From: an uncultured Gammaproteobacteria bacterium
GTDB lineage: Bacteria > Patescibacteriota > Microgenomatia > Daviesbacterales > UBA10151
Direction of reading: 5' to 3'
Length of the DNA stretch: 64,000 nucleotides
NCBI GenBank assembly: GCA_964360965.1
Contig: CAYHYM010000004.1
Coordinates: 660-64,659, forward strand
Under the pieces are notes generated by a model. The model ran no database searches. It was given only the letters and a program-made list of their open reading frames with translations, and was not told the origin of the DNA. Each line of letters begins with the position of its first letter. Position 1 is the first letter of the stretch. Position numbers and translations under genes: made by a program. Below, in pieces: positions 11,097 through 63,664 of this stretch.

Positions 11097-11100
11097 GTTA

Positions 11101-11160: not shown

Positions 11161-11258
11161 AGTCAAGATATCAATCATAAGTTATTAGTTTAAAACTGAT
11201 TGTCATAGATTGCCCTATAATGATACTTTTTTAGGCTCTTGCACAGTACTTTTTCACA

Positions 11259-14705: not shown

Positions 14706-14720
14706 TGGTAACCTAAGGTT

Positions 14721-17163: not shown

Positions 17164-18335
17164 GAAAGCTTTACCGGCATCAGGATATATTCCAAACCCT
17201 CAACTCCCACCGGCCGGATCAGGCAGGCTGACAAGGATCCGGAAAAATTAAGGGTTATTTTTGAAGAAGGCGCGTTTGATATAGCATCAATTAAAAATCT
17301 GGCATTAAAGGCAATGGTTAACCCGTCACCTGAAACATCAGCTTCAATTTCATTTTGCTGGCTGCCCAACTCTTTAGCAGAGGAGCTCAATACCATTTTA
17401 TCTTTTTCCAGTTTAAGCACAATAATATTGGCTTCGTTTTTGGCAAATACCGCCGCCAGTTTGACAGCCACCAGCATCTGCTCTTTGTTAATGATGGCAG
17501 TTGTTTGAATTTGGGTGGGGATAATCTTCTCCCAGGAGGGGAATTGTCCTTCTATCAACCTTGAGGAAATGATGGTTTCTCCGATATGAAAGATGATCTG
17601 ATTTTGGCTGGAGATGTCTTTAATAACCACCTCATCAACTCCCTCCTCTGAAATGATTTTTAAAACCTCTTCCAAAGTTTTTTTGGGTATCAGGCTTCTA
17701 AACCCTTTGACGGAGTTTATCCCGAGCGGCTTGTCCTGAGATTTGTCGAAGGACTTGTCCTGAGATTTGTCGAAGGAAGTCAAGGGACTCAGGGCAAGCT
17801 GTATTTGCCTGTGGGCCAGCCTAAAACCGTCAGTGGCCACAAAATCAAGCTTACCAGCGCTGCTTTGGGTTAACACTCCTGTTAAGGTAGGCCTTCCTTC
17901 ATCGGTGGCCGCAGCATATAAAATCTGGGCGCAGGAGTTGAGCATATTCTTGGGCAAACTTATGCCTTCACCCCCTCCCACAGGAATTACCGGAAATTCA
18001 GATGAGGATCCTGCTGAAATCGTGGCCTGGAATTTTCCCGCACTAACAATTAAGCTGTTTTGATTTGTGGAAATGTCGATTTTTGGCTCTTTTAAAGAGG
18101 TTACTACCTCGAGGATGGTTTTGGCAGGAACCACAATCTCACCAGGCTCTTGAATTTGCGCCGGGACAAATTTAATCACCCCAATTTCTAAATTGGTGGC
18201 AGATAACCTGACCTTAGACCCCTCTGTGGTAAAAAGGATATTTTCCAGTATAGGGAGTGTTGATCTGATACCTGTTGATCTGACAACTGTTTGTAAGGGT
18301 GGAAGTAAGTCTTGTTGTAATATAGTAAACTTCAT
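17160..18335 (-). CDS. dnaN: DNA polymerase III beta sliding clamp, carrying an in-frame repeat insertion
   Basis: N-terminal MKFTILQQDLL...ATNLE and C-terminal IAFNARFLIDAI motifs; length about 16 aa over typical because of a tandem 24-nt repeat. Confidence 0.85.
   Translation of the reverse strand: MKFTILQQDLLPPLQTVVRSTGIRSTLPILENILFTTEGSKVRLSATNLEIGVIKFVPAQIQEPGEIVVPAKTILEVVTSLKEPKIDISTNQNSLIVSAGKFQATISAGSSSEFPVIPVGGGEGISLPKNMLNSCAQILYAAATDEGRPTLTGVLTQSSAGKLDFVATDGFRLAHRQIQLALSPLTSFDKSQDKSFDKSQDKPLGINSVKGFRSLIPKKTLEEVLKIISEEGVDEVVIKDISSQNQIIFHIGETIISSRLIEGQFPSWEKIIPTQIQTTAIINKEQMLVAVKLAAVFAKNEANIIVLKLEKDKMVLSSSAKELGSQQNEIEADVSGDGLTIAFNARFLIDAISNAPSSKITLNFSGSLSACLIRPVGVEGLEYILMPVKLS
17730..17777. 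repeat. 2 x 24-nt perfect tandem repeat (cttgtcctgagatttgtcgaagga) inside dnaN, within a GC-rich patch about 17715..17800
   Basis: Direct reading; encodes SFDKSQDKSFDKSQDK in frame. Reverse complement carries the CCTTCGAC...CTCAGG core seen in other GC-rich elements. Confidence 0.85.
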
Positions 18336-20267: not shown

Positions 20268-20276
20268 CAGGATAAG

Positions 20277-20312
20277 TTATCCACAATTTAATCCACAAGT
20301 GAGTTTTCCACA
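20277..20312. promoter_or_regulatory. cluster of three DnaA boxes upstream of dnaA (TTATCCACA, TAATCCACA, TTTTCCACA)
   Basis: Direct reading at 20277..20285, 20289..20297 and 20304..20312, with a further degenerate box near 20331. Confidence 0.7.
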
Positions 20313-20383
20313 ATATAGAGAAACTATTAAAAAGTGGATCAAAAATTTTGACAAATCCCAACAAATTCTGGTAAAATTAAAGC

Positions 20384-20521
20384 ATGCCAAAAAGAACCTA
20401 CCAGCCTAAAAAATTAAAAAGATTAAGAAAACACGGGTTTAGAAGCAGAATGGCAACCCATGATGGTGCTAGAGTTCTAAAAAGAAGAAGAGCCAGAGGT
20501 AGAAAAAGACTAACGGTATAA
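20384..20521 (+). CDS. rpmH: 50S ribosomal protein L34
   Basis: Translates to [45 protein letters not shown]; canonical position upstream of rnpA. Confidence 0.85.
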
Positions 20522-20528
20522 GGTTTTC

Positions 20529-20618
20529 GTCATTCCTGCGAATGCAGGAATCCATTTAACAAAAAACGTAAACCCATGCCGCTCAAGTTAATTGGATCCC
20601 GACATTCGTCGGGATGAC
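20529..20618. repeat. GC-rich MITE/RPE-like palindromic element (family 1), 90 nt, termini GTCATTCCTGCG...CGTCGGGATGAC
   Basis: Terminal hairpins attcctgcGAATgcaggaat and atcccgacATTCgtcgggat; reverse complement shares both termini plus the internal aattgga with the 108-nt element inside tsaD. Confidence 0.8.
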
Positions 20619-20624
20619 ACCGCT

Positions 20625-21032
20625 ATGTTACCTAAAACCAAAAGACTAAATCTCAAAACAGATTTTAAATGGGTGGCCTCTGGTAAAAAAATAGACACTA
20701 AGTTTGTCAGGCTTTTTGTTAAAATGGGAGATCCTTCGACCCATTCGATTAACACTCAGGGTCGTACTGAGTGGAATCGAAGTACGACTCGCTCCGCTCG
20801 CTCAGGACCTTTGGTTGGGATTGCTGTTTCAAGTAAGTCTTTTAAAAAAGCAACTCAGCGCAATAGAGCCAAAAGACTTACCTCTGTCGCACTTGAATCA
20901 CTTTATCCTCTTCTCCCTTCCCGCTTAAATATTGTGGCCCTTCCCAAAACTGCCATAATTGGTGTAAAATCACAAGATGTGTTGTTGGACTTGATGAAAT
21001 GTTATGAAAAAAATACTGATTGGTTTAATTAA
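20625..21032 (+). CDS. rnpA: RNase P protein component with an internal repeat-derived insertion
   Basis: LPKTKRL...FVRLFVK...RNRAKRLTS blocks typical of RnpA. The start was trimmed from 20592, since the first 11 codons lie in the family-1 repeat. About 27 aa inserted (GDPSTHSINTQGRTEWNRSTTRSARSGP). Confidence 0.7.
   Translation: MLPKTKRLNLKTDFKWVASGKKIDTKFVRLFVKMGDPSTHSINTQGRTEWNRSTTRSARSGPLVGIAVSSKSFKKATQRNRAKRLTSVALESLYPLLPSRLNIVALPKTAIIGVKSQDVLLDLMKCYEKNTDWFN
20742..20817. repeat. GC-rich element (family 2, TCCTTCGAC...CGCTCGCTCAGGA) inserted in-frame in rnpA
   Basis: Same ends as the 28-nt copy at 34106..34133; locally GC-rich compared with the flanks. Confidence 0.7.
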
Positions 21033-21204
21033 TTTTTATCAAAAATTTCTCTCCTTTGACAGAGGTATGCTGGCTATTTTTGCTCCAGGAGGTGCTTGCA
21101 GATTTAGTCCCAGTTGTTCAGAATACACAAAACAGATGATTAGGGGGTTTGGGGTGTTTAGGGGAAGTTGGCTTGGTATGCAAAGAATCTGGAGGTGCAG
21201 ATGA
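21004..21204 (+). CDS. yidD: membrane protein insertion efficiency factor YidD
   Basis: CRFSPSCSEY motif; canonical position between rnpA and yidC. Confidence 0.75.
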   Translation: MKKILIGLINFYQKFLSFDRGMLAIFAPGGACRFSPSCSEYTKQMIRGFGVFRGSWLGMQRIWRCR

Positions 21205-28073: not shown

Positions 28074-30284
28074 TTAGGCACGAGGCCAATCAGAGATCAT
28101 TATGGATTCCCCTTTATGAGGTAGTTTTTGCCATAATTCTTCTGTAATAAAGGGCATGAATGGATGAAGCAGTTCTAGGCTGGTTTTGAAAACATACTCT
28201 AAAACAGGTTGAGCTTCAGCTCTTCTTTCTTTGGTAGATTCAATATATTTATCTGCAAACTCATGCCAGATAAAATCATATAAGATATTGGCAGCATCAT
28301 GGAATCTGAAAGCTTCCAAGGCTTTAGTAACCTTTTCAGTAGTTTCTGCTAATTTTTTAATAATTTCTTTATCATCAGCATTGTCATTGCGAGGAGTCTG
28401 CGACGAAGCAATCTGGATTGGAGATTGCCACGGTCGCCCAGGCGACCTCGCAATGACGTCTTTATTTGGATTAAACTCAATGATGAAGCGGCCAATATTC
28501 CAAAGCTTATTGGTAAAATTTCTCATAGCCTGGAGTTTAGGATGAGACAGGGATTGATCATGGCCCAAAGCTGTGCCGTAAATTAGAGCCATCCTGGCTG
28601 CATCTGCCCCGTATTGATCTGTAACTTCTAAGGGATTGACTACGTTATTTTTAGATTTACTCATTTTTTTGCCTAAAGGATCTAAAACCATGCCATGTAA
28701 AACAATATCTTGAAAAGGGATTTTGTTGGTAGCGTATAAACCCAGCATGATCATTCTGGCCACCCAGAAAAATAAAATTTCTCTACCTGTTTCTATAATT
28801 TGAGTTGGATAGAATTTTTCAAAATCTCCGCCAGCTGGCGGATTGGTGGTCTGCAAAGTAGCGAAGGTCCACTGACCTGAAGAAAACCAGGTATCAAAAG
28901 TGTCTTGATCCTGTTCCAGGGTGGAGTCATTACAAGAGCTGCATGTATCCGGCTTTTCACCTTCAGTAACAGTCCATTTTTTGCAAGAATCACAATACCA
29001 GGCAGGAATCTGTATTCCCCAGATAATTTGCCTGGAGATATTCCAATCCCTGATATTTTTAAGCCAGTTAAAGTAAATTTTGGCAAAATTTTTGGGATAA
29101 ATTTTTATTTTCCCAGATTTTACTGCCTCAATTGCTTTTTTTGCCAAAGGTTCAACTTTTATAAACCACTGCTCCAAAGGCAGGGGTTCAATTACATTTT
29201 TACACTTATAACAAAGGCCAATTCTGTGTTTGTATTCATAATCAACTTTTTCTAAAAGTTCTTTTTGCTCTAATTCTTCTACAACTGCCTGTTTTGCCGC
29301 TTTCACACTCATTCCGGAAAACTTTCCCGCACTAGCATTTAACCTTCCATCAAAGCCAATCACCTGAACAATAGGTAGGTTATGGATTTGAGCTCTTGCA
29401 AAATCATCCATGTCATGGGCTGGGGTAAGTTTGATAATTCCTGTTCCAAAAGTAGGATCAACAGTGTCATCCGCTATAATTTTCATCTCTTTGTCTGTTA
29501 AAGGATTTTTTACTTTTCTACCTGTATACCGGGAATTTTTCTTATCTTTTGGGTTAATAGCCAGATAGTCATCAATCATGATTGGCTCTGGTCTGGTGGT
29601 AGCAATAACTAAATATTCTGGCTCGCCAGCTTTGCTGTTAATTAGTGGGTAGCGGACATAATATAGCGGATCTTTTCTTTCTTCATAAACTACTTCTAAA
29701 TCAGAAAAGGAGGTGCCATTTGTAGTGCAGTAATTAACCAATCTTTGGGTTCTGTAAACCAATCCATCATCAAACAGTTTTTTAAAGGTTTTGTAGACAA
29801 CTTTGACAATATCAGGATCAAGAGTAAATTTTTGTCTGGACCAATCAAGAGAAAACCCCAGTCTTTTGAGTTGCTGTTCCATATTTCCTCTATTCTCTGC
29901 CACAAAATCCCAAATCATCTGATAAAGGGTGGTTCTGTCGTAATCAAATCTGGATTTTCCTTGATTCTCAAGATGTTTTTCAAAAACAAATTGTGTTTCA
30001 AAACCGGCATGGTCTGCTCCGGGCAGCCACAAAGTAGCTTCACCTTTCATCCTATGATATCGGATGAGAATATCTTCAATGGTATACATGGCATGGCCAA
30101 AATGTAGGGGGGCATTGGCATTGGGTGGAGGTAAGATGATGGTAAAAGGTTTGCCATCAGGATTTATTTCAGGCTTAAAATAGCCTGCCTTTTCCCAAAA
30201 TTTGTACCATTTTTGTTCAACCTTAGTTTGATTATAAACTTTGTCCATCAGCATAAGTATAGGGTGCTTGTAGTAGTTGGTCAA
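28074..30284 (-). CDS. valS: valyl-tRNA synthetase (reduced form) with in-frame repeat insertion in the C-terminal domain
   Basis: HIGH region PPPNANAPLHFGHA, KMSKS motif, ValRS-like blocks; the 75-nt GC-rich element is read through in frame. Confidence 0.8.
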   Translation of the reverse strand: MTNYYKHPILMLMDKVYNQTKVEQKWYKFWEKAGYFKPEINPDGKPFTIILPPPNANAPLHFGHAMYTIEDILIRYHRMKGEATLWLPGADHAGFETQFVFEKHLENQGKSRFDYDRTTLYQMIWDFVAENRGNMEQQLKRLGFSLDWSRQKFTLDPDIVKVVYKTFKKLFDDGLVYRTQRLVNYCTTNGTSFSDLEVVYEERKDPLYYVRYPLINSKAGEPEYLVIATTRPEPIMIDDYLAINPKDKKNSRYTGRKVKNPLTDKEMKIIADDTVDPTFGTGIIKLTPAHDMDDFARAQIHNLPIVQVIGFDGRLNASAGKFSGMSVKAAKQAVVEELEQKELLEKVDYEYKHRIGLCYKCKNVIEPLPLEQWFIKVEPLAKKAIEAVKSGKIKIYPKNFAKIYFNWLKNIRDWNISRQIIWGIQIPAWYCDSCKKWTVTEGEKPDTCSSCNDSTLEQDQDTFDTWFSSGQWTFATLQTTNPPAGGDFEKFYPTQIIETGREILFFWVARMIMLGLYATNKIPFQDIVLHGMVLDPLGKKMSKSKNNVVNPLEVTDQYGADAARMALIYGTALGHDQSLSHPKLQAMRNFTNKLWNIGRFIIEFNPNKDVIARSPGRPWQSPIQIASSQTPRNDNADDKEIIKKLAETTEKVTKALEAFRFHDAANILYDFIWHEFADKYIESTKERRAEAQPVLEYVFKTSLELLHPFMPFITEELWQKLPHKGESIMISDWPRA
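28383..28457. repeat. 75-nt GC-rich element with perfect 12-bp terminal inverted repeats GTCATTGCGAGG/CCTCGCAATGAC inside valS
   Basis: Direct reading; internal hairpin gtcgccCAGgcgac; length is a multiple of 3 and it is translated in frame. Confidence 0.8.
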
Positions 30285-30736: not shown

Positions 30737-31879
30737 TCAAGCGAGGGATAAATTGGGATCTGCCTGAAGTTTTAAAGGATTTGGGATGGGTTTTTGGAAA
30801 AATCCAGCTGCTGCAATCATGGCTCCGTTATCTGTACACAAGTCTGGTGGAGGAATATATAATTTAATATTTGAATTCAAACTGTCCACTGTAACCTGTA
30901 ACCTGTCAACTAACTTTTTATTTGCAGCCACACCGCCGGCAATCATGATATTTTTCACAGGATGAACTTTTAATGCCTGGATTACTTTTTCTACTAAAGA
31001 TTCAACTATGGTATTTTCAATAGCAGCAGCCAGATCTTGCTTCACCTCCGAGGAGTCAAAGCCCACCTCGGAGGTGTGTACCAGGTTTGCTACTGCAGTT
31101 TTTAAGCCTGAATAAGAGAAATCAAAATCTTTTGATCCCTTCATAGGAATGGGAAGTTTAAATCTATTTGGATTACCTTTTTGAGCCAGTTTGGAAATTT
31201 CCGGTCCTCCTGGATAGGAAAGTCCTAATAATCTGGCACATTTATCAAAGCACTCACCTGCCGCATCATCCCTGGTGCCACCTAAATAATCATACTTGCC
31301 ATGACTGGTAAAAAGCACTAAATCCGTATGCCCACCTGAAACCAGTAAGCCTAAACAAGGAAATACTGGTACTTCACCTCCGGGATGTTCTGTTTGAATC
31401 CAGTTGGCATAAAAGTGGCCAAGTAAATGGTTAACTGGTATTAATGGTTTATTCCAAACTAAGGCTAGAGTTTTGGCTGTTTCTACTCCCACCAAAAGGG
31501 ATCCAATCAGTCCTGGACCGTATGTGACAGCTATGGCATCAATTTTCTTTATTCTGTCATCCCGACGAATGTCGGGATCCAATTCCGAACGTGACTTTGT
31601 TAATTGGATTCTCCTCGAGTCTGAGCGACCTCGGAGTCGAAGACCTGCATTCGCAGGAATGACATCGGGAAAGATTTGACTTAGTGCTTCCTCAATTACC
31701 GGAATAATGCTTTTGATCTGTTCCCTGGCAGCTTGTTCCGGAATAATTCCTCCATATTTGGCTTGTAAATTAGCTGATGATGCTACGACATTGGATAATA
31801 TTTTTACTCCATCTTTATCCTTTATCAATATAGCAACTGCTGTCTCATCGCAACTAGTTTCAATACCGAGTATTATCAT
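30737..31879 (-). CDS. tsaD: tRNA N6-adenosine threonylcarbamoyltransferase TsaD (Kae1/Gcp) with a 36-aa in-frame repeat insertion
   Basis: MIILGIETSCDET...HLLGH...GGVAANK blocks; length about 380 aa against a typical 340. Confidence 0.85.
   Translation of the reverse strand: MIILGIETSCDETAVAILIKDKDGVKILSNVVASSANLQAKYGGIIPEQAAREQIKSIIPVIEEALSQIFPDVIPANAGLRLRGRSDSRRIQLTKSRSELDPDIRRDDRIKKIDAIAVTYGPGLIGSLLVGVETAKTLALVWNKPLIPVNHLLGHFYANWIQTEHPGGEVPVFPCLGLLVSGGHTDLVLFTSHGKYDYLGGTRDDAAGECFDKCARLLGLSYPGGPEISKLAQKGNPNRFKLPIPMKGSKDFDFSYSGLKTAVANLVHTSEVGFDSSEVKQDLAAAIENTIVESLVEKVIQALKVHPVKNIMIAGGVAANKKLVDRLQVTVDSLNSNIKLYIPPPDLCTDNGAMIAAAGFFQKPIPNPLKLQADPNLSLA
31556..31663. repeat. 108-nt family-1 GC-rich MITE/RPE-like element inside tsaD (termini GTCATCCCGACG...CGCAGGAATGAC)
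   Basis: First 29 nt and last 23 nt are identical to the reverse complement of the rpmH-rnpA copy; multiple of 3; encodes ...LDPDIRRDD... in frame. Confidence 0.85.
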
Positions 31880-33362: not shown

Positions 33363-34238
33363 GTGATTACTAAATCAAAACAGGAATATATTAAAAATGC
33401 TATTTATCTTTCCTATACTTCTTTAAATGATTTTTTGAAGTGTCCCGGGAGCTATTATTTAAAAAACATCTACAGAGATCCCAAAACCGGCTTTAGGATG
33501 CAGATTGCCTCACCTTATCTTTCTTTAGGTTCAACAGTCCATGATGCTATAAAGTGGCATATAGAAATGGCAGGCCCGCTTCGACTCGCGTCGAGCGAGG
33601 CGAGACAGGTAACATATGAACAATTGGAGGGAAAATTTAGAAATCTATGGCTAAAATATACCGGTAAAAGAGGGGGTTTCTCCACCAAAGAAGATGAAGC
33701 AAGTTTTGGTAAGCGCGGCCTGTTAATGTTGGAGAATTTTTTTAGAAATGCCAAAAACTTGGAAGATAAACATCACAGTATAGAATTTCCTAAATACCCA
33801 TTATTGGATAATGTAATTTTAATGGGGAATTTTGACTTTATTGGGGAAAAAGAGGATCAGACCTTACATGTTGTGGATTTTAAAACCGGAGCAAATGATG
33901 AAAAAGATCCAATTCAGCTTTATATTTATGCCATTTTGGCAGAGGCTAATTTGGAAAAATCAGTTTCTTCAGCTTCATTTTGGTATTTGGACAGGGAAGA
34001 TAAACCGCGTGATATAGTTTTAGATCCGCTGGAACCAAAACTGGAATGGTTAAAAGAAAAAGCCACAGAGTTAAAAAAGGCAATTGGGGAGGGAATGTGG
34101 GTTTGTCCTTCGACTCGCTCCGCTCGCTCAGGATTATGTAGAGATTGTAGAGACTATCATGCCATTTTGGATGGAAAAGGTGAATTTCAATTTACTGATT
34201 ATAGATACAAGAAAGATGTTTATTACCTTCCCAAATAG
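33363..34238 (+). CDS. Cas4/RecB-like PD-(D/E)xK nuclease with 4-Cys cluster (orphan, no CRISPR nearby)
   Basis: N-terminal Cys (CPGSYY), DF...VDFKTG...QLYIY nuclease motifs, C-terminal C...C..C; two short GC-rich in-frame insertions. Confidence 0.55.
   Translation: MITKSKQEYIKNAIYLSYTSLNDFLKCPGSYYLKNIYRDPKTGFRMQIASPYLSLGSTVHDAIKWHIEMAGPLRLASSEARQVTYEQLEGKFRNLWLKYTGKRGGFSTKEDEASFGKRGLLMLENFFRNAKNLEDKHHSIEFPKYPLLDNVILMGNFDFIGEKEDQTLHVVDFKTGANDEKDPIQLYIYAILAEANLEKSVSSASFWYLDREDKPRDIVLDPLEPKLEWLKEKATELKKAIGEGMWVCPSTRSARSGLCRDCRDYHAILDGKGEFQFTDYRYKKDVYYLPK
33570..33612. repeat. short GC-rich element inside the Cas4-like gene
   Basis: ggcaggcccgcttcgactcgcgtcgagcgaggcgagacagg, about 70% GC in an AT-rich gene. 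Confidence 0.55.
34106..34133. repeat. 28-nt family-2 GC-rich element (TCCTTCGACTCGCTCCGCTCGCTCAGGA) inside the Cas4-like gene
   Basis: Identical ends to the rnpA insertion. Confidence 0.7.
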
Positions 34239-35562: not shown

Positions 35563-35627
35563 GGTTGGATTGTATCATAAAAGTTTAACTTCTGCTAAAT
35601 TGTTATATTTGTGGAAGCCTACCTGTA

Positions 35628-36344: not shown

Positions 36345-36540
36345 GCCCAACTTAACTTCAGCTAAAGTGTTGTGTTTATGAAATCCATTAGAGGGGATCG
36401 ACTCAAATAGCTTAATCGACGATATCCGTATTGGATTAAAAGGCATGGCCATAAGTTTTTCCATTTCCACTTCTAATTTTTGATCTACTTTTAAATGGTT
36501 GTTGAGCTTGGAAATATTGAAATCTTCACTTTTGATAAAG
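36345..36540. repeat. partial duplicate of the thpR 3' end (about 196 nt, same orientation as thpR)
   Basis: Near-identical to 41945..42125, including a 75-nt perfect stretch aaaaggcatggccataagtttttccatttccacttctaatttttgatctacttttaaatggttgttgagcttgg. Confidence 0.85.
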
Positions 36541-40052: not shown

Positions 40053-40354
40053 AAAGTGATATTAAGACAACCGGAGTAATGGCGCTTGACTGGGCAGCGG
40101 CTCAGGGAGATTTGCACGAGATTCAAAGGTTAGTCGCATCCGGCGCAGATTTGAACGAAGGTGATTATGATGGGAGAACCGCAATACATCTGGCAGCCTC
40201 GGAAGGACAGGAAGAAATTGTCAGGTATTTAATTGCGAAAGGTGTAAATATTAATCCTAGGGATCGTTGGGGTGGGACACCTTTAGCTGATGCCATGAGA
40301 GGTAACCACACCAAAGTTATAGAGCTTTTGAAAAAACATAATGCACAGAAATAA
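40049..40354 (+). CDS. stand-alone ankyrin-repeat protein, tandem duplicate of the glutaminase ANK module
   Basis: About 70% identical to the last 95 aa of the upstream ORF; ATGA start/stop overlap. Confidence 0.65.
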   Translation: MKSDIKTTGVMALDWAAAQGDLHEIQRLVASGADLNEGDYDGRTAIHLAASEGQEEIVRYLIAKGVNINPRDRWGGTPLADAMRGNHTKVIELLKKHNAQK

Positions 40355-41479: not shown

Positions 41480-41530
41480 CCCAAGTTTAACTTCAGCCAG
41501 AATGTTATGTTTATGGAAGCCATTTTTGTA
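41480..41530. repeat. second short copy of the thpR 3'-terminal sequence
   Basis: tttaacttcagccagaatgttatgtttatggaagcc against the thpR end tttacttcagctaaagtattatgtttgtggaaacc. Confidence 0.55.
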
Positions 41531-41534
41531 GAAA

Positions 41535-41654
41535 TCAAAGTAATTCTTTAAGTTCATCTATGGAAATTTCCACTGACTTTAAAATACTCATTAGAGTTTT
41601 TCTTTTGAGAGCTTTAATGACCTCCTTTGGCTTAACAACTGGAATTTTGGGCAT
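41535..41654 (-). pseudogene. hicA: HicA toxin remnant with internal deletion
   Basis: Translates to MPKIPVVKPKEVIKALKRKTLMSILKSVEISIDELKELL: the N- and C-terminal segments of the intact 74-aa HicA at 63179..63403 are fused and the central GSH region is missing. Confidence 0.55.
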
Positions 41655-41918
41655 TTAAGAAAGAGTTTGCTGGATGGGTATATCAATTGTTGTCATAAAG
41701 CTGGGACCTTTTTCTTCAGGAACTATTTCATTATGTTTTTTTAAACTGGCAATATATACGCTGATAGCATCTTTAACCATCTCCACAGCTTCTTCCAAAC
41801 TGTTACCTTCTGTGACACATCCTGGCAGAGCAGGTACAATCACCACATACCCACCTTCTTCAGCTGGTTCAAAAATAGCAGTATATTTTAAGATTTTTTG
41901 AGAGATTTTCTTAGCCAT
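41655..41918 (-). CDS. hicB: HicB-family antitoxin (orphaned)
   Basis: About 85% identical to the HicB at 63404..63664; UPF0150-like YxxxFEP...GGY..VP..PGC motif. Confidence 0.6.
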   Translation of the reverse strand: MAKKISQKILKYTAIFEPAEEGGYVVIVPALPGCVTEGNSLEEAVEMVKDAISVYIASLKKHNEIVPEEKGPSFMTTIDIPIQQTLS

Positions 41919-41936: not shown

Positions 41937-42503
41937 TCAAACTAACTTTACTTCAGCTAAAGTATTATGTTTGTGGAAACCTTCTTGGGGAACTGATTCA
42001 AACAGTTTAATGGAGGAAATTTTAATGGGATTAAAAGGCATGGCCATAAGTTTTTCCATTTCCACTTCTAATTTTTGATCTACTTTTAAATGGTTGTTGA
42101 GCTTGGCAATGGTGATATGAGGAATGAAACGACGTTCATCTGCTGTGAGCCTTAAAGTGGCCAAGCTATCTTTGATGCGCTCACGAATAAGTAAAATTTT
42201 ATCTATATCCCCTTTGACTCCAATCCAAAGAACTTGAGGATGGTGGAGGTTTGGAAATCCATCAATATAGGCAGGGGTAACTTCAAATGCAGGAATATTC
42301 GCTACAGCATTTCTGATAATTTCAACTAATTTATCCTTTAATCCATCCGGTTGTTCTCCTAAAAAAGCTAAAGTCAGGTGAATTTTGTCTAAATCAGTAA
42401 TTCTTACTTGAGTAATTAATGTATGCAATTTAGCTTGTATAGCTTGAAACTGCAATCTATTCTCTTTCGGAATTTCAAGTGCTATGAAAAACCTTATACC
42501 CAT
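41937..42503 (-). CDS. thpR: RNA 2',3'-cyclic phosphodiesterase / 2'-5' RNA ligase family (ThpR/LigT)
   Basis: Two H-x-T/S-x motifs (HLTLAF and HITIAK) at the characteristic spacing of the 2H phosphoesterase fold. Confidence 0.7.
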   Translation of the reverse strand: MGIRFFIALEIPKENRLQFQAIQAKLHTLITQVRITDLDKIHLTLAFLGEQPDGLKDKLVEIIRNAVANIPAFEVTPAYIDGFPNLHHPQVLWIGVKGDIDKILLIRERIKDSLATLRLTADERRFIPHITIAKLNNHLKVDQKLEVEMEKLMAMPFNPIKISSIKLFESVPQEGFHKHNTLAEVKLV

Positions 42504-44761: not shown

Positions 44762-46459
44762 TTACTGTGTTCCCACCAGATACACAGCTTGCCAGGGTTT
44801 GTAGTTAGATTTCCAGGTTTCTTTGATCATCACCTCCCCTCCTTTGGTGACAGTTCTGGTAAATGACACATCAGCCCCCCAGGCTGCAAAATCTATCTGT
44901 TTGACCTCACCTTTGGGCAGCTCGGGGTCATCCTGTCGCAACTCCGGTGGAGGCGGAGTCTGGTTGGTAATAATTGGTTTTGTTAAAGTGGCCACCCTGT
45001 TATCAGAGGTGCCATATAAATCAACATATAAACTGTTACCCACTGTATATGCTTGGATTAAAATATGGGATGGGGTGTCATTTTTAAACTTAAAATCAAC
45101 AGAGGGAGAAAAAACTGTGGCATCCAGTCCGGCAGGGAAACCCTGCTCATAATAACCCACTCTGTAGGCATGAGCTACTCTTTGGACCACTGGTAGTCCC
45201 GCATTTAAGACTGCTCTAAATAAAGTAGTTGAATCCTGACAAACTCCTCCTCCATCATCTAAAACAGTCCTGCCGGATTTAATCACATAGGCCTGTTTAT
45301 AACCTGACTGCGCCGAAATATCCCCAACTTTGTCGTTAAAAGAGAATGTTTCTCCTGGGGGGACTAAAATACCGTTGATGCGTGAGGCAGCCAGTCCAAT
45401 ATTATAGATTCTGTTGGGGATTGAACCTGTAAAATGAGAAATACCGCGACCAATTAGCTCTTTGATCCCCAAATCATTGACCTGTTGGGTTTGGATTTTA
45501 GGCTGGGTAATGGTAACTGGCAAGGTGATGGTTTTTGGTCTTTGGTTGTCCAAAGCCAGTATGATAAGTTGAGTTGTTTTTTCCATATCAACTCTTTTAC
45601 CTGCCTGGGCAGGTTTGAAAGCTGTTACCCGTGCTATTAATGGATCAAAATTAAACAGCGCCTCAATCACCGGTTGGTCAATTTTGGAAGCTACTGCAGT
45701 TGTTAAATATTTGGATAGCTTATTTTTATCTATTAACTGATTATTTTGTGTAAAATTCAAAAGAGGGATTAAAATTTTAGCATCAATCAACCAGCTATTG
45801 CCATCAAAGGTAAGTTTGATTGGTTCTTTGATAGCATCCTCCAGATATTTTTTGGCCAGTTCTGCCTCTTTATTGGTAATGTCTGGTTCAATTTGCCTGG
45901 TGGGAAGTGTGGCAGGCGAGTTCCCAAATAAAAGGTAATCCTCAAGGTAAATTAACAGTTGGTCTTTATCCAAAGCAAGACCTGTTCTGCCTGCTGTTAT
46001 TTTAATTAGGGCAGATGGGGTTGACTGCTCTATTGTAAGAGTGGCATCTTGGGGAGGTTGATATATGGTTTGAGCTAAGGCGTTAACTTGTTCGTTAAGA
46101 TCAATATCAATTTTGGGTTTAATGGTTCTTGGGGAAACTGTCAGTTTTATTTGATCGAATATTTTTTCTGCCCAGGTACCTGTATGGCCGATTAAAAAAG
46201 CCTCGTCTATGGCCTGAGAACTATTAATTTTGGCAGAGGCGGTTGACAGGTCAATGGTAAGGATCCTTTGCCGCAGTCTTTGGTGGAATTTTGCCTCAAT
46301 CAGTCTTTGAGATTGAGTTTTGGTCAGGAAAAAAAGATGACTATCCCCGACAAAAATTCCGGGAAAAAATTTATCGTAAAAAATAAACTGACAGCTGGTG
46401 AGAATAAGTATGATCAGGATAAAAAATAACACCAGCGGTCTTTTTGCCATTGAGCGCAT
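44762..46459 (-). CDS. VanW-family protein
   Basis: N-terminal TM helix; C-terminal DDGGGVCQDSTTLFRAVLNAGLPVVQR...HAYRV block characteristic of VanW. Confidence 0.7.
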   Translation of the reverse strand: MRSMAKRPLVLFFILIILILTSCQFIFYDKFFPGIFVGDSHLFFLTKTQSQRLIEAKFHQRLRQRILTIDLSTASAKINSSQAIDEAFLIGHTGTWAEKIFDQIKLTVSPRTIKPKIDIDLNEQVNALAQTIYQPPQDATLTIEQSTPSALIKITAGRTGLALDKDQLLIYLEDYLLFGNSPATLPTRQIEPDITNKEAELAKKYLEDAIKEPIKLTFDGNSWLIDAKILIPLLNFTQNNQLIDKNKLSKYLTTAVASKIDQPVIEALFNFDPLIARVTAFKPAQAGKRVDMEKTTQLIILALDNQRPKTITLPVTITQPKIQTQQVNDLGIKELIGRGISHFTGSIPNRIYNIGLAASRINGILVPPGETFSFNDKVGDISAQSGYKQAYVIKSGRTVLDDGGGVCQDSTTLFRAVLNAGLPVVQRVAHAYRVGYYEQGFPAGLDATVFSPSVDFKFKNDTPSHILIQAYTVGNSLYVDLYGTSDNRVATLTKPIITNQTPPPPELRQDDPELPKGEVKQIDFAAWGADVSFTRTVTKGGEVMIKETWKSNYKPWQAVYLVGTQ

Positions 46460-46520
46460 TTTACGTTAGTTCCAAGCTTTGGGCAAGTTATGAGATATAA
46501 TTGAAAGGTAGACCTGTGAA

Positions 46521-46615
46521 GAGCCCTTCGACAAGGCTTCGACGGTGAGTCTTTCGACCCTGAGCTCAAGACCGAAGGGCTCAGCCGAACCGCTCAGGGT
46601 AAACTCTGTCGAACC
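46521..46615. repeat. 95-nt GC-rich palindromic element (family 2 core) immediately upstream of the transporter gene start
   Basis: 10-bp terminal-ish inverted repeat gagcccttcg...cgaagggctc enclosing ccttcgac/ctcagg cores; ends at the ATG of the next gene. Confidence 0.75.
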
Positions 46616-47914
46616 ATGAAAAAAATTATTATTTTGGTTTTAGTTTTGGCCATTATTTTGGGAGTTTTAATATGGCGTTTTGGGCTGAGTAACAATTTAA
46701 AAAAAGTAGAGCCTGTTAATTTGACTTATTGGGGACTGTGGGAAGAAGAAAATTTGTTAAAACCTTTGATTTTAGAGTATCAAAAACAAAATCCCAATGT
46801 GACAATAAGTTATGTTCGGCAATCATCAATCAATTATAGAACCAGGGTTCAGGCTCAAATCAAAGAGGGGGTGGGGCCTGATATTTTTAGAATTCACAAC
46901 TCCTGGCTGGGCATGTTTTTAAAAGAGGACAGTTTGGCTCCTGCTTCTGATGTGTTTACTCTAGCTGATTATAAAAATACCTTTTATCCTGTGGCAGCTG
47001 ATTCTTTTATAACAGCTGATGCCATTTATGCAGCGCCCATGGAAGTTGATGGACTGGCCCTATTTTATAATGAAGACATGTTAAACGGGATCAACGGAAA
47101 ACCACCTGAGAATTGGCAAGAATTTATAGAGATAGCCTTCAAAATGACTGTCCGGGATGCATCAGGAATAAAGACAGCAGGCGCCAGTTTAGGAACAGCC
47201 TCAAATGTTGATCACTTCTCGGATATAATAGGGTTGCTACTTTTACAACAACCTGGTGTGGATTTAACAAATGTGGCAACCCTTCAAGTTGCGGAGGTTT
47301 TAAGATTTTATACAGGCTTTGTGACAGATCCAGGGAAAAAAACTTGGGATGTCAATTTGCCTTCCTCAACTCAGATGTTTATAGAAGGACGCTTAGGTTT
47401 TTATTTTGCACCTTCTTGGAGAGCACATGAGATAAGAGTGGCCAACCCCAATTTGAAATTTAAGGTGGCACCAGTTCCACAGCTGGCAGGCAGGACAGTT
47501 GCTTGGGCTTCTCTTTGGGGTGAGGCTGTATCCAAAACCAGTAAGAATAGGGAGGAAGCCTGGAAATTTGTCAAATATTTAACATCTGCTGAAGCTCAAA
47601 AACTTTTCTATACCGAGGTCTCAAAAGTAAGGTTTTTTGGGGAGCCTTATTCAAGGGTGGATTTGGCAGGGGAGATCTCGGAGGATCCTGTTGCAGGGGC
47701 TTTTGTGTCCCAGGGCCCGTATTATAAATTCTGGTATTTATCATCCAACACCTATGACAACGGAATAAATGATGAGATGATTAAATACTGGGAGGATGGC
47801 ATAAATGCCACCCTGGCTGGAACAGATCCACAGGTGGCCTTACAAACTGTGGAGAAAGGTGTAAAACAGGTGCTGGATAAATATACCAAAGCTGCTACTC
47901 CAAACACAAAATAA
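46616..47914 (+). CDS. ABC transporter extracellular solute-binding protein (family 1, sugar-type)
   Basis: N-terminal TM/signal anchor, size and overall pattern of SBP_bac_1 proteins. Confidence 0.6.
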   Translation: MKKIIILVLVLAIILGVLIWRFGLSNNLKKVEPVNLTYWGLWEEENLLKPLILEYQKQNPNVTISYVRQSSINYRTRVQAQIKEGVGPDIFRIHNSWLGMFLKEDSLAPASDVFTLADYKNTFYPVAADSFITADAIYAAPMEVDGLALFYNEDMLNGINGKPPENWQEFIEIAFKMTVRDASGIKTAGASLGTASNVDHFSDIIGLLLLQQPGVDLTNVATLQVAEVLRFYTGFVTDPGKKTWDVNLPSSTQMFIEGRLGFYFAPSWRAHEIRVANPNLKFKVAPVPQLAGRTVAWASLWGEAVSKTSKNREEAWKFVKYLTSAEAQKLFYTEVSKVRFFGEPYSRVDLAGEISEDPVAGAFVSQGPYYKFWYLSSNTYDNGINDEMIKYWEDGINATLAGTDPQVALQTVEKGVKQVLDKYTKAATPNTK

Positions 47915-57866: not shown

Positions 57867-59647
57867 TAGGTAGCCCTTACTCTTACTTTGGTGGTGACGC
57901 GAAATTTTAAATACTTCCCAAACATCATTGATGTTTGGGCATCAAGGGCTGGGAGGGTGGAGATGGTGACAATGATAATAGGTATCAAAACCCACTGAAT
58001 ATAGGACCATAGTTTTTGTAAGATAGACCAAGACTCCGGCCTTTTGGGAACCGTTTTTTCGTGGACATAGATGGTGGCAAATATTCCCAAAAAGGCGATA
58101 GTTAATATCCAGGAGGAGATAAACGGCAGGTTATAAGAAACTACAGATTGAGCATAGTCAGGATTAATCAATGGAATAAGCAGTCCGGCAAAAGTGACAA
58201 ATAAAGCCAAGATTCCCCAGCGCAAATAACCCCAAACGACAAAAAGCAGTTTATCTGTTTTATCCCAAAAATCCAAATCTTTATTTTTAAAATACTGTTT
58301 AACAATAAAAGGAATGTGTTCTACCCCATAAGCCCAGCGTTTTTGTTGTAAATATTGATTTTGTAGAGTCTTAAATAAAGTGACATCCAAAACCGCATCG
58401 GCGGAGATGGGTAAAAAGTGGGGGATCACTTTGTAGTCTCCTTTAAAATGAAAGTAAGCCTTCCAATAAAATCCGGAATCATCATTAACTTTATCGGGAA
58501 TCCACAGGCCCACATTCAGCAGAGATTTTAGATTAATAGACAAAGAGGCAAAATTCATATATTTATCAGAGCCCACCATCTCTGATAACTGCCAAAATGA
58601 AGTACCTGCTGCCATCAGTCTCATGGGGGTAGGTACCTGCCAATAGTTGTTATGATATAAAAACATTCCGGTGTAGCTTCTTTTATCACGAATGTTGGCC
58701 GGGGTGGACAGATACTTGTGCAGCGCTCCGGCTAAAAATTGAGGATGAATCACAAAATCAGCATCTAAAGTGGTAACAATTACCTGTTCCTCTTTGATGC
58801 CTAATTTTTTAAACTGCTCCACGGCATTATTAATCATGTAATTTCTATTAGTTCCCGGGCCTGGTATTTCTCCAGGTAAACCAAAGGGGTGGATGGTGGT
58901 AAAGACTCCACCGATCTTTTGGCTTAAGTTATTCAAGTAAGTTTGAGTTTTTTTAATTTTTTCCGGATCATTTTGATACTCTCTTTCCTCAAAACCTACT
59001 GCTAAAAATATTTTATCTTTGGGATAATTAGCAGAAACAACGGCATCAAAGACTGGCAGCACCACCTCTAAAGGTTCTTTATAAGTGGGTACGGCAATTA
59101 AATGATAGTAATTTTGCCAATTGTCAGAAAAATCTTTATCTAATTTTTGTAGCCAGTTTTGTTTTTTGGCTTCTTCCATCTTTCTATAACCGATGATGAT
59201 CAAAACTGCTATTTTTAAAGAGCTAATCAGCCAATAAATATCGGCCAAAAGTATCAGATATGCCACTGCAAAAGGTAGAGTAAATGATAACCAGATGGGA
59301 GAGGTGAGGGCAATCCAGGTTAGAGCTCCCGGGAATATCTCTAAAAACCTCTCTACTGTTGTTTCATGTTTTCTGACAAAGTCTTTTTCTAACTTTTCTG
59401 AAAAAACAAAACTTTCTCGCAGCAAATGATGAACGATCATCCCTATACCGGAACCGGTCATGAAGATAGATAACAGAGTGCGGCTGGGGTCACTGATGAT
59501 GATTTCTCCCAAAAAGAGGATTGTCAGTCCGGTTAGTACTAATATTAAACCTAGGACACTGCGGTGTAAGTGCCGTCCTCTTAAGATTACCTCTGATAGG
59601 TAAAAGGAAAGTACGCCACCAAGAATAAAAAAGAGAACGATTCTCAT
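57866..59647 (-). CDS. processive family-2 glycosyltransferase (cellulose/chitin-synthase-like)
   Basis: TM helices flanking a GT2 domain with DAD and QQKRW (QxxRW) motifs. Confidence 0.65.
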   Translation of the reverse strand: MRIVLFFILGGVLSFYLSEVILRGRHLHRSVLGLILVLTGLTILFLGEIIISDPSRTLLSIFMTGSGIGMIVHHLLRESFVFSEKLEKDFVRKHETTVERFLEIFPGALTWIALTSPIWLSFTLPFAVAYLILLADIYWLISSLKIAVLIIIGYRKMEEAKKQNWLQKLDKDFSDNWQNYYHLIAVPTYKEPLEVVLPVFDAVVSANYPKDKIFLAVGFEEREYQNDPEKIKKTQTYLNNLSQKIGGVFTTIHPFGLPGEIPGPGTNRNYMINNAVEQFKKLGIKEEQVIVTTLDADFVIHPQFLAGALHKYLSTPANIRDKRSYTGMFLYHNNYWQVPTPMRLMAAGTSFWQLSEMVGSDKYMNFASLSINLKSLLNVGLWIPDKVNDDSGFYWKAYFHFKGDYKVIPHFLPISADAVLDVTLFKTLQNQYLQQKRWAYGVEHIPFIVKQYFKNKDLDFWDKTDKLLFVVWGYLRWGILALFVTFAGLLIPLINPDYAQSVVSYNLPFISSWILTIAFLGIFATIYVHEKTVPKRPESWSILQKLWSYIQWVLIPIIIVTISTLPALDAQTSMMFGKYLKFRVTTKVRVRAT

Positions 59648-60549
59648 GCCTTAATTATGCCAATTTTGCTGACGTTTTGCCACATCTGATCCACAATTTG
59701 ATCAATTGGTTGATTTTTTATCCGGGCAATTTCTTTAACCACTTCTAAAACATAGGCAGGTTCGTTTCTCTGTCCCCGTTTTGATTGTGGCGGTAAAAAA
59801 GGAGAATCAGTTTCGATGGTAATTTTTTCCAAAGGTAGGATCCTGGCGGCTTCTTGTAGATATTCATTTTGGGGATAGGTGATATTGCCGGCAAAGGAAA
59901 CCAGGAAATTAGTTTGCAGTATGCGGTTGGTAGTTGGTAGTAAGCCACTATAACAGTGGTAAATACCAAAGTAGTCTTTTGTCATCTTCAAGACTTCATC
60001 CCAGGCCGAAGGAGACGAAGTCTCCGCAGGTGGTGAGCCACTCGGCACTGAGCTCACGGCCGAAGTGCCTGTCGAACCGCTACTTTTTGATCTGTCATCC
60101 CGGCAGTGAACAATTAAAGGAAGGTTAAGTTTTTTTGCTAAATCAATTTGAGCTTGGAAAAGCTGCCTTTGTAGGTTTTTAACAATAAACACCTCCGAGG
60201 TGGGCTTTGACTCCCCGGAGGTGGAGAAAGCATAATCCAGGCCGCACTCTCCAACAGCTACTACTTTATCTACATTATCTAAATATATTTTTTCTAAACT
60301 TTTTATATCTTTTTGGATAGATATGTCTAGGTTATCTTTATACTTAACTGCCTCATGAGGATGAATGCCAATCGAAGAATAAAATTTTAATTTGTTAGAA
60401 TTTAACTCTGCTGCGATTTTGGAAGTTTCAACATCTACACCAATATTAATGATAATGCCTACATCAGCATCTAAGGAATGTCTAATCACTTCGTCAAAGT
60501 CTTGTTTAAAACTATCCCAATATAAATGTGCATGAGTATCAATTAACAT
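59644..60549 (-). CDS. tatD: TatD-family metal-dependent DNase with an about 33-aa in-frame low-complexity insertion
   Basis: MLIDTHAHL, VGECGLDY and IVHCRD blocks; the insertion DRSKSSGSTGTSAVSSVPSGSPPAETSSPSAWD is encoded by a GC-rich element. Confidence 0.8.
   Translation of the reverse strand: MLIDTHAHLYWDSFKQDFDEVIRHSLDADVGIIINIGVDVETSKIAAELNSNKLKFYSSIGIHPHEAVKYKDNLDISIQKDIKSLEKIYLDNVDKVVAVGECGLDYAFSTSGESKPTSEVFIVKNLQRQLFQAQIDLAKKLNLPLIVHCRDDRSKSSGSTGTSAVSSVPSGSPPAETSSPSAWDEVLKMTKDYFGIYHCYSGLLPTTNRILQTNFLVSFAGNITYPQNEYLQEAARILPLEKITIETDSPFLPPQSKRGQRNEPAYVLEVVKEIARIKNQPIDQIVDQMWQNVSKIGIIKA
59995..60112. repeat. GC-rich hairpin-rich element inside tatD (family-1-like gtcatccc ends plus a gtcgaaccgct core)
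   Basis: Hairpins ggagacGAAgtctcc and ggtgagc...gctcac; about 62% GC. Confidence 0.7.
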
Positions 60550-63178: not shown

Positions 63179-63403
63179 TCAAAGTAATTTTTTAAGTTCA
63201 TCAATAGAAATTTCAGCAGATTTTAAAATACTCATTAAAGTTTTTCTTTTGATAACTTTATTATGATAAGCAATAGTGGCTCTGAGAGTTTTATCAGAAT
63301 TGTACATGACATAATGGCTTCCACTAATATGATCTATTATAAAGTCCTTTCTTTGTAGAGCTTTGATAACCTCTTTTGGTTTAACAATCGGAATTTTTGG
63401 CAT
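63179..63403 (-). CDS. hicA: HicA-family toxin
   Basis: MPKIPIVKPKEVIKALQRKDF...GSH... matches the HicA pattern. Confidence 0.65.
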   Translation of the reverse strand: MPKIPIVKPKEVIKALQRKDFIIDHISGSHYVMYNSDKTLRATIAYHNKVIKRKTLMSILKSAEISIDELKKLL

Positions 63404-63664
63404 TTAAGAAGGGGAGGAGATGGGTATATCTATGGTGGTCATAAAGCTGGGCCCTTTTTCTTCAGGGACAGGTTCATGATGTTTTTTCAAACTAGCAATA
63501 TACCCAGTTATAGCATCTTTAACCATCTCTACAGCTTCTTCTAAACTGTCCCCCTCTGTGATACAACCTGGTAGGGCAGGAACATAGACTACATAGCCAC
63601 CTTCTTCAGCTGGTTCAAAAATAGCAGTATATTTTAGAATTTTTTGAGAGATCTTCTTAGTCAT
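63404..63664 (-). CDS. hicB: HicB-family antitoxin
   Basis: Paralog of 41655..41918; immediately upstream of hicA. Confidence 0.6.
   Translation of the reverse strand: MTKKISQKILKYTAIFEPAEEGGYVVYVPALPGCITEGDSLEEAVEMVKDAITGYIASLKKHHEPVPEEKGPSFMTTIDIPISSPS

Follow-up and report, generated by a model that had tools for sequence, protein, structure and literature searches.

Introduction

How can a gene whose product keeps the catalytic motifs of its enzyme family also hold, within its reading frame, a segment of GC-rich DNA that forms hairpins and has a relative in intergenic DNA? The question is raised by tatD, a housekeeping nuclease gene, of an ultra-small groundwater bacterium, in a 64-kb stretch of contig CAYHYM010000004.1 (hereafter the window, meaning the whole stretch of DNA that was analyzed), in which an initial annotation had proposed that a GC-rich hairpin element encodes a Ser/Gly/Thr-rich insertion. 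The closest named relatives of the TatD protein belong to Candidatus Daviesbacteria, of the Patescibacteria or candidate phyla radiation (CPR). The explanation that we favor, with a confidence only somewhat above even, is that the segment is selfish repeat DNA, GC-rich and able to form hairpins, which inserted in frame in Daviesbacteria tatD and is translated and tolerated there, while its persistence and spread would be played out at the level of the nucleic acid.

The window represents roughly 6-8% of a typical CPR genome (~0.8-1 Mb), and its relatives were available as 20-kb slices. The TatD comparison covers the 120 best homologues, which were drawn from called proteins and are thus biased toward intact open reading frames (ORFs). 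Coordinates are those of the whole stretch, and the insert and the other TatD features are read on the minus strand.

An in-frame insertion in TatD

The identification of the host ORF as a TatD-family metal-dependent hydrolase was upheld: PF01026 is matched over residues 3-295 (E 3.6e-62), the best relatives among solved structures are 1j6o, 2gzx and 1yix (TatD/YcfH matches, down to E 3.8e-41), and the TIM barrel is accompanied by the metal-ligand motifs HxH, E (GExGLD), H (HxRD), H and D (ETD). The catalytic motifs of the window's protein are intact (DTHxH, GECGLD, VHCR, HCYSG and ETDxPF), and the five motifs checked are kept in 11 of the 12 homologues that carry the insert, the twelfth (P0090) failing a strict HCYSG pattern. 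Relative to solved TatD structures and to the 120 close homologues alike, an extra Ser/Gly/Thr/Pro-rich segment lies between the HCRD block and AWDEV, so that the window's TatD reads HCRDDRSK-SSGSTGTSAVSSVPSGSPPAETSSPS-AWDEV where about 100 of the 120 sequences in the alignment of best homologues read HCRDDRS-[KQ]NPENSE-AWDEV. The ancestral six residues (consensus NPENSE) have been replaced by 26, for a net gain of 20. An insertion of about 33 residues had been proposed, and while the insertion itself stands, its size does not, as the D-R-S-K and A-W-D ends of that longer segment are native to the lineage. When filled and empty sites are compared as DNA (an empty example, from locus L003, reads ...AGATCAAAA AATCCTGAAAATAGTGAG GCTTGGGAT...), the junctions are sharp and 15-18 nt are exchanged for 45 nt in the short form and for 78 nt in the long form. 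The insert contains no stop codon, is in frame, and has a net length that is a multiple of three in all carriers; as all carriers keep the frame, read-through is the simplest reading. Intein, intron and bypass readings were ruled out by the size of the segment, its frame and its lack of stop codons.

Metagenome-assembled genomes can hold chimeric joins at repeats, and an assembly chimera or a sequencing artefact would be the most trivial explanation of such a segment. Nothing specific points to one here, and we regard it as excluded for all practical purposes because independent assemblies carry the insert. The window's exact TatD protein is present in two independent assemblies of Hainich groundwater collected on 0.1-µm filters, 11 other assemblies, which come from different projects and have sequence variants of their own, show the same insert at this site, and the frame and catalytic motifs are intact.

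The claim that this coding stretch is GC-rich also holds. The insert (60007-60084) is 63% GC, and up to 67% in 60-nt windows, as compared to 39% for the window as a whole (60-nt windows: mean 0.393, sd 0.078), and 59985-60104 is among the window's strongest GC islands. The segment is G+C-rich and not skewed, in that no G-versus-C skew was found in it. The initial annotation had named orthologues carrying the segment without such a composition as the observation that would count against it; upon examination, the carriers hold the same GC-rich DNA. It might nevertheless be supposed that an ordinary low-complexity, disordered linker has expanded in situ, neutrally or under selection at the protein level, and that its GC content follows from its Ser, Gly, Thr, Pro and Ala codons. 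These residues do dominate the insert, their codons are GC-rich at the first two positions (GC2 of the insert 0.84), the segment is predicted to be disordered, and the ancestral P-E-N-S loosely resembles the P-(Q)-E-T-S of the insert. We give this explanation very little credence. The third codon positions are enriched too, with a GC content (GC3) of 0.50 in the insert and 0.75 at a second site of the same gene (site A, described below) versus 0.30 in the rest of tatD, which argues that the GC richness is not merely a matter of amino acid composition. Furthermore, the carriers are not near-identical strains, sharing 60-80% protein identity, and the codon, stem and repeat comparisons described below also speak against it.

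In an AlphaFold model (30-sequence alignment) the TIM barrel is predicted with confidence (predicted template modeling score 0.85), while residues 156-181 appear as coil with a per-residue confidence (pLDDT) of 36-54; a second dip occurs at residues 105-117. The model places the insert in beta-alpha loop 5, which follows beta-strand 5 (VHCRD), and predicts it to be disordered. Like the insert (site B), site A is a beta-alpha loop that immediately follows a metal-ligand strand (GE101CGLD for site A and VH148CRD for site B); both therefore lie on the catalytic face, which in TIM barrels is the length-tolerant face.

Conservation of the insert as nucleic acid

The insert is modular. It is composed of a hairpin (H1, with the loop TTCGACAGGCTCA), a 30-nt palindrome centered on GAGCTC and nested inside the H1 loop, and a second hairpin (H2). 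The short form, found in 10 orthologues, comprises H1 and H2 and reads AGT-GGTTCGACARGCTCACCACC-TCAG-GAGACTTCGTCTCC-TTCGGCC, wherein a GTGG/CCAC stem of 4-5 bp closes the H1 loop TTCGACARGCTCA and H2 is GGAGAC-TTC-GTCTCC. The long form is confined to the window's tatD and one orthologue (P0002). The net gain is 30 nt in eight of the ten short-form carriers (39 nt in P0074 and 18 nt in P0090) and 60 nt for the long form.

In a comparison of nine carriers, pairs that share a residue use the identical codon in 419 of 477 cases (0.88) within the insert versus 3377 of 6459 (0.52) in the rest of tatD, and the synonymous sites of the codons immediately flanking the insert vary freely. The element is 79-98% identical between host TatDs that are 60-80% identical as proteins. 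RNAalifold recovers both stems, and three compensatory double changes are present in the 9 sequences, a number that 2 of 500 column shuffles reach: GTGG/CCAC to GCGG/CCGC in H1, and in H2 GGAGAC/GTCTCC to AGAGAC/GTCTCT (P0019 and P0109) and to GAAGAC/GTCTTC (P0074 and P0090). Three further carriers (P0029, P0109 and P0090) agree with this picture, for which 9-12 related sequences provide the basis. The compensatory changes come at an amino acid cost (Q to T, P to L, E to K and P to S), and it is therefore the base pairing that is preserved and not the peptide. To judge from these comparisons, what is conserved in the insert is its DNA and not its protein sequence, and the proposal that a GC-rich hairpin element encodes the TatD insertion is borne out by the codon conservation, the compensatory stems and the orthologue alignment. 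A linker expanded in situ does not predict codon conservation so far above that of the rest of the gene, nor amino acids that change in order to keep base pairs.

The hairpins proposed at this locus stand as short local stems with covariation support, and fail as a fold of the whole region. A single large stable hairpin was rejected, as whole-region folds are no better than those of shuffled sequences. Perfect 7-bp GC-rich hairpins are likewise not enriched across the window (6 observed versus 3.5 +/- 1.9 expected), and because this census was null, hairpin density is not used as evidence here. A tRNA or tmRNA origin, suggested by GGTTCGA and CTCACCA strings, was set aside: ARAGORN found nothing, and the stem geometry is unlike that of a T-arm.

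Such conservation could also be the mark of a functional structured nucleic acid within tatD (an mRNA structure acting in cis, a small antisense RNA (sRNA) or a protein-bound DNA hairpin), acquired once and held by purifying selection on its structure and sequence while its peptide is tolerated. The nearly frozen synonymous sites of the insert and the maintenance of its stems despite the amino acid cost speak for such a function, as do the restriction of the H1-H2 pair to tatD, the constancy of the H1 loop while stems vary across phyla, and the pairing of 99 of 99 cells on the antisense strand (plus strand of the window), in which the two mismatches of the sense strand become G.U; the last is also a weak hint that the antisense strand is the relevant one. 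We consider this explanation unlikely, however. A function specific to tatD should be less sporadic than an element present in about 10% of orthologues, scattered on the gene tree, with close non-carriers that keep NPENSE. The left junction also varies, that of P0090 and P0074 being unlike that of the other carriers. Rfam 15 gave no match at gathering score anywhere in the window, none even at E <= 10 within 59900-60300, and chance-level matches only at 46440-46680. Last, no promoter or terminator signal exceeds chance at the insert, and a terminator or promoter role was rejected on these grounds; a plus-strand T-run beside H1 is not conserved in other carriers.

Distribution among TatD alleles

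The insert is carried by 12 of the 120 homologues (10 with the short form and 2 with the long form), always at the same tatD site, and most carriers derive from groundwater metagenomes. On neighbor-joining trees, which were built from 234 non-insert columns (a short alignment) with 200 bootstraps, the carriers are scattered nearly at random. The nearest relative is a non-carrier for 10 of the 11 carriers first examined (before P0090 was recognized), and the carrier state takes 10 Fitch steps (6-12 over the bootstraps), as compared to 9-12 for random labels. Three tight groups, of at least 80% identity, mix both states: P0003 and P0025 with P0005, P0023, P0006 and P0024; P0019 and P0109 with P0112; and P0074 with P0117. 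Only across the insert window (+0.28) and, to a slight degree, the neighboring 15 residues (+0.07) do carriers resemble one another more than they do non-carriers, with no hitch-hiking of the flanks beyond about 15 residues of the insert. Moreover, P0074 and P0090 have a stem variant in common, though each has more than 20 closer TatD relatives.

The synonymous sites of NPENSE vary among the non-carriers, which argues that NPENSE is old and, in turn, that the insert is the derived state, with a history decoupled from that of the gene. The presence of the same element at the same tatD site in distant alleles points to repeated site-directed acquisition, or to short-patch transfer between co-occurring Daviesbacteria.

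Relatives of the element outside tatD

The initial annotation had linked the insert to 46521-46615 through the core gtcgaaccgct, and the resemblance turns out to be larger than this 11-mer. Positions 60032-60081 align to 46544-46594 on the same strand with 78% identity over 51 nt (E about 1e-5), which covers H1 and the palindrome; the closest match is that between the palindrome and 46553-46577. H2 does not align to this intergenic element, and the 46544-46594 copy is non-coding, which a linker that grew within the protein does not explain. When folded as RNA and as DNA, 46510-46620 is no better than shuffles (z about -1.5). The intergenic element and the inserts in other genes use the same vocabulary of words (CCCTTCGACAAG, GCTCAGGG and TGTCGAACC).

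The H1 motif has a considerably wider distribution. Its 17-mer GGTTCGACARGCTCACC occurs in at least 120 IMG/VR stretches, with many contigs holding multiple copies, as compared to 15 stretches, all single-copy, for a composition-matched control. In IMG/VR the motif usually makes up one of the two arms of an inverted repeat, CCGTTCGCCCTGAGCTTGTCGAAGGG...GGTTCGACARGCTCACCACGAACGG, and in about 14% of cases it is a hairpin loop closed by at least 4 bp, the loop being constant while the stems vary across phyla. Alpha-, Beta- and Gammaproteobacteria also carry it on plasmids, in every case without annotation, and the GC content of the contigs ranges from 37 to 71%. The tatD short form and the consensus of this widespread repeat have 19 consecutive bases in common, again in opposition to a linker of purely local origin. 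On these matches, the H1 loop motif belongs to a widespread, unannotated hairpin repeat, and the link to proteobacterial plasmids and environmental contigs suggests an uncharacterized, broadly distributed repeat family behind it. As a hairpin repeat of about 52 nt (CCGTTCGCCCTGAGCTWGTCGAAGGG..GGTTCGACARGCTCACCACGAACGG) it is found in tandem or dispersed in IMG/VR loci L039-L117 (e.g. L056:5440-5680) and on the plasmids CP087967.1 and NZ_CP091425.1. Rfam returned nothing useful for loci with the repeat even at permissive thresholds, the sole signal being a sub-threshold one to Aggregatibacter sRNA 41, and a BLAST search of plasmids and phages with the L032 region and the 52-nt unit gave few matches, all unannotated. 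We found no publication describing the repeat, and the literature on palindromes within CPR coding sequences and on the characteristic peptide and DNA words yielded nothing relevant. A gapped pattern (GTTCGACARGC N{0,30} TCACCRCCT) gave mostly chance matches and was hence not applied to metagenomes.

Modules in other genes of the window

In-frame GC-rich modules are not limited to site B of tatD (Table 1), and other essential genes are affected. Palindromic insertions lie in frame in unrelated genes that remain intact, namely those for TatD and TsaD (two sites each), a ValRS-like protein, RnpA, DnaN and a PD-(D/E)XK nuclease. The window contains 14 significant internal repeat pairs versus about 0.7 in shuffles, and each module is present in only 2 copies in the window; the copies are 93-100% identical and lie in unrelated genes or in intergenic DNA. 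Relative to E. coli-type TsaD, the MITE-like element (resembling a miniature inverted-repeat transposable element) adds about 37 residues (VIPANAGL...LDPDIRRDD) to the window's protein. Its copy upstream of rnpA has a different interior, and the frame used in TsaD is closed there by a stop codon. A relative of the RnpA module lies in frame at L007:3994-4056, in the M24 peptidase gene of another Daviesbacterium. The modularity, the second tatD site (60189-60230), the scatter independent of the gene tree and the involvement of several essential genes all go beyond what had initially been noted at this locus.

Table 1. Positions of the tatD insert, its parts, and related or comparable GC-rich modules in the window.
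Feature	Position	Strand	Remarks
TatD-family metal-dependent hydrolase ORF	59644..60549	-	301 aa; PF01026, PDB matches, motifs, AlphaFold
Site-B insert, long form, in TatD	60007..60084	-	78 nt, 26 codons (S156-S181), peptide SSGSTGTSAVSSVPSGSPPAETSSPS; 120-homologue alignment, empty/filled-site DNA
H1, 5' half	60069..60081	-	stem GCGG(T) and loop start TTCGACAG; covarying stem, GTGG/CCAC to GCGG/CCGC in P0019
Nested 30-nt palindrome inside H1 loop	60039..60068	-	GAGCTC-centered; window's allele and P0002 only
H1, 3' half	60029..60039	-	loop end GCTCA and stem CCAC(C)
H2	60011..60025	-	GGAGAC-TTC-GTCTCC; compensatory variants
Intergenic composite element	46520..46612	+	58% GC; ends 3 nt before ATG (46616) of solute-binding-protein gene
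Site-A hairpin in TatD	60189..60230	-	CACCTCCGAGG-TGGGCTTTGACT-CCCCGGAGGTG, encodes STSGESKPTSEV; replaces loop after GECGLDY, length unchanged
Site-A hairpin copy, in frame in TsaD	31036..31077	-	encodes HTSEVGFDSSEV; 93% over 42 nt, inverted
MITE-like element, in frame in TsaD	31555..31663	-	~109 nt; hairpin ends GTCATTCC..., ...GGGATGAC; fold z -3.1
MITE-like element, intergenic, upstream of rnpA near origin	20529..20619	+	both ends 100% identical to TsaD copy
GC-rich module, in frame in RnpA	20735..20812	+	STHSINTQGRTEWNRSTTRSARSGP
GC-rich module in PD-(D/E)XK nuclease gene	34105..34133	+	23 nt 100% identical to 20785-20807 in rnpA
GC-rich hairpin, in frame in ValRS-like gene	28383..28461	-	GTCATTGCGAGG...CCTCGCAATGAC; ~16 aa longer than T. 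thermophilus ValRS loop
In-frame insert in DnaN (beta clamp)	~17700..17800	-	tandem CCTTCGACAAATCTCAGGACAAG x2 (SFDKSQDK x2); vocabulary shared with 46520 element

Several observations accompany these modules. The DnaN insert amounts to about 30 residues and splits the central Pfam domain of the protein. For the ORF at 28074-30284, Pfam gives a class-I tRNA synthetase with a weak match to a LeuRS editing domain, while the best PDB match is 1gax; the protein is hence referred to as ValRS-like. Site A of the TatD orthologues P0099, P0108 and P0112 holds far longer inserts, with up to about 50 extra residues and words such as SPSAQNDR, and some Daviesbacteria TatDs (P0002, P0006, P0007 and P0106) end in C-terminal LRLRSG extensions, which together suggest that elements were inserted at other places too, one of them the stop codon.

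Routes of spread and alternative explanations

Under the explanation that we favor, a GC-rich element with few stop codons (few because it is GC-rich; three of six frames are open in the site-B element) would at times land in frame in a surface loop and be tolerated there. In TatD the host would be beta-alpha loop 5 after VHCRD, where the insert would be read by the ribosome as a disordered Ser/Gly/Thr/Pro loop, and the element would be kept and propagated as nucleic acid, its stems being held by compensatory changes despite the change in amino acids. Mobility, whether by transposition of single-stranded DNA hairpins in trans or by gene conversion, would be the means of its spread. As for the recurrence at one site, a filled site may convert an empty one, as is the case for an in-frame GC cluster of the yeast mitochondrial gene var1, or a short patch may be transferred between co-occurring Daviesbacteria.

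A number of results weigh against this explanation. For the element to have been gained repeatedly at a single position, some means of targeting would be required. No transposase or HUH enzyme is present among the 28 window ORFs scanned with Pfam (about 40% of its genes). Neither terminal inverted repeats nor a target-site duplication is visible at the site-B junctions. The H1-H2 unit was found nowhere other than tatD in about 390 kb of Daviesbacteria DNA, the H2 20-mer had no match in IMG/VR, and a scan of JGI metagenomes for H2, with a pattern that was too permissive owing to its degenerate stem positions, returned 65 stretches, 64 of which were unrelated coding strings and the sole genuine copy of which was again in tatD; a typical mobile family should show more copies and more contexts. 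The 131 nt at 59985-60115 fold no better than shuffles, with z of -1.45 as DNA and -0.41 as RNA. Translation of the insert, moreover, is something we infer from the frame and the integrity of the ORF.

The filled patch need not have required a dedicated transposase at all. Ultra-small, DNA-scavenging cells might take up nuclease-resistant, GC-rich hairpin fragments and integrate them via microhomology at the lagging-strand template, in a manner similar to oligonucleotide recombination or to short-patch double illegitimate recombination (SPDIR), which is known from work on Acinetobacter; a filled patch would then pass between Daviesbacteria in like manner. Several observations are in keeping with this. 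Both tatD sites are replacements (site A length-neutral, site B exchanging 15-18 nt for 45-78 nt), the vocabulary is common to unrelated GC-rich organisms and proteobacterial plasmids, copy number per genome is low, the flanks do not hitch-hike, and the carriers come mostly from groundwater metagenomes; further, the strand that pairs perfectly serves as lagging-strand template on the right-hand side of the origin, a weak point as n=2. The proposal is purely inferential, however. It does not by itself explain the compensation within stems after integration, and the H1-H2 arrangement was found in no putative donor. We consider it quite unlikely.

It is tempting to extend the selfish-element explanation, and we do so tentatively, as a proposition we think considerably less probable than not. 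The tatD insert may belong to a new class of bacterial mini-elements, hairpins rich in GC whose TTCGACARGCTCA loop is constant and spread across phyla and whose stems covary, and which colonize essential genes of the CPR in frame. At least one of them would "home" to a fixed site, converting, like the var1 cluster, the empty tatD alleles of co-occurring species through a trans-acting, hairpin-recognizing enzyme or through short-patch conversion coupled to transformation.

Comparison with known repeat systems

Several known systems resemble the elements described here, each in part. The Rickettsia palindromic elements (RPEs; Ogata et al. 2000, as summarized in PMC10969869) are described there as palindromic repeats located between genes and in frame in unrelated housekeeping genes of Rickettsia. 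As far as that summary goes, the likeness extends to short palindromic repeats that are intergenic and, unusually often, in frame in the housekeeping genes of a small, AT-rich, host-dependent bacterium, and to inserts that form, or in the present case would form, extra surface segments compatible with the fold. The differences are as follows: the elements here measure 45-110 nt as compared to the approximately 100-150 nt given for RPEs, and they are GC-rich on an AT-rich background; they are modular, shuffled and of low copy number per family in the sampled DNA; the patchy spread at one fixed site (tatD site B), independent of the gene tree, is not part of the description of RPEs in that summary; and the host is a member of Candidatus Daviesbacteria, not Rickettsia. 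RPEs occur as tens of dispersed copies per genome; the 2 copies counted here for each module are those in the 6-8% of a genome that the window covers. The comparison with RPEs is one of descriptions, not of sequences.

The GC clusters of yeast mitochondria, which are mostly intergenic but include an in-frame polymorphic cluster in var1 with unidirectional inheritance through conversion, and for which loop-biased substitution and module shuffling have been reported (PMC8811140), are even closer in behavior than RPEs. In both cases a GC-rich palindromic cluster sits in an AT-rich genome (63 versus 39% GC here) as an in-frame presence/absence polymorphism (12 of 120 here), base changes fall mainly in the loops, and modules are fused and reshuffled. 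In contrast to the yeast clusters, the present element resides in a bacterial chromosome (dnaA/dnaN) and shows no AG/TAG terminal repeats or target-site duplication at the tatD site, and conversion is suggested by its distribution.

A resemblance to the REP/REPIN-RAYT system and to MITEs (ERIC, Correia, BOX) is seen in the short hairpin repeats of conserved sequence with covarying stems, which are non-autonomous, and some MITE and ERIC copies are known to lie inside genes and give rise to in-frame fusions (PMC10969869). The element in TsaD and upstream of rnpA is MITE-like in its inverted hairpin ends (GTCAT...ATGAC), with no clear target-site duplication. Repetitive extragenic palindromic (REP) sequences, however, are extragenic, high-copy and lineage-specific, whereas the H1 loop motif crosses phyla at low copy number, most copies here lie within genes, and no RAYT, parent insertion sequence or Y1/HUH transposase is present among the 28 scanned ORFs. 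The site-B insert also departs from MITEs in having no recognizable terminal inverted repeats or target-site duplication, and in being a net replacement of 15-18 nt. Finally, the byp GC clusters of Magnusiomyces capitatus mitochondria and the insert of T4 gene 60 are mobile GC-rich inserts in genes of AT-rich genomes that the ribosome skips (PMC5009743, PMC8811140). Byps break the frame or hold unused or stop codons, whereas the tatD insert is in frame and has no stop.

Should this explanation of the insert hold, CPR/Patescibacteria would harbor selfish DNA despite their streamlined genomes, and tiny modules of it would hide as translated loops in essential genes, those for the beta clamp, TsaD, ValRS, the RNase P protein and TatD. 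Variation in protein length among CPR lineages would then need this explanation. Spurious low-complexity "insertions" and small ORFs would be expected in gene calls, with consequences for the alignments used in phylogenomics of CPR marker genes. The tatD site would furthermore provide a clean natural experiment, in that the same 45-nt element occupies the same site in alleles that are otherwise saturated at synonymous sites, with its stems compensated, and it would make testable how short palindromic elements move and persist with no adjacent transposase, as with RPEs and mitochondrial GC clusters.

Additional features of the window

The origin region spans 17160-22043 and comprises dnaN (17160-18335, minus strand), dnaA (18936-20267, minus), rnpA (20592-21032, plus) and yidC (21168-22043, plus); the GC skew changes sign at about 12-20 kb. 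The MITE-like GC-rich element at 20529-20619 falls within the dnaA-rnpA intergenic region, which is the expected place of oriC.

A cluster resembling a type IV secretion system (T4SS) occupies 2655-16709. It contains two T4SS_pilin genes (3890-5055), a PrgI-family gene (11259-12266) and a TraG/VirB4-like P-loop ATPase (12951-14705), along with several large ORFs that have no Pfam match.

Longer repeats are present as well. A segment of about 400 nt occurs in two copies (41535-41918 and 63179-63664, 83-88% identical), which the matching contig L001 annotates as a HicB-like antitoxin and HicA toxin, and is thus a duplicated toxin-antitoxin module. A 211-nt direct repeat (39799-40009 and 40101-40311, 82% identical) spans the end of the ORF at 38322-40052 and the ORF at 40049-40354 and is a tandem duplication of a coding segment. 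AT-rich repeats of 84-86% identity (36349-36515, 41944-42110, 35581-35619 and 41483-41521) are common to the 3' parts of several small minus-strand ORFs, which are possibly a further duplicated family of small genes.

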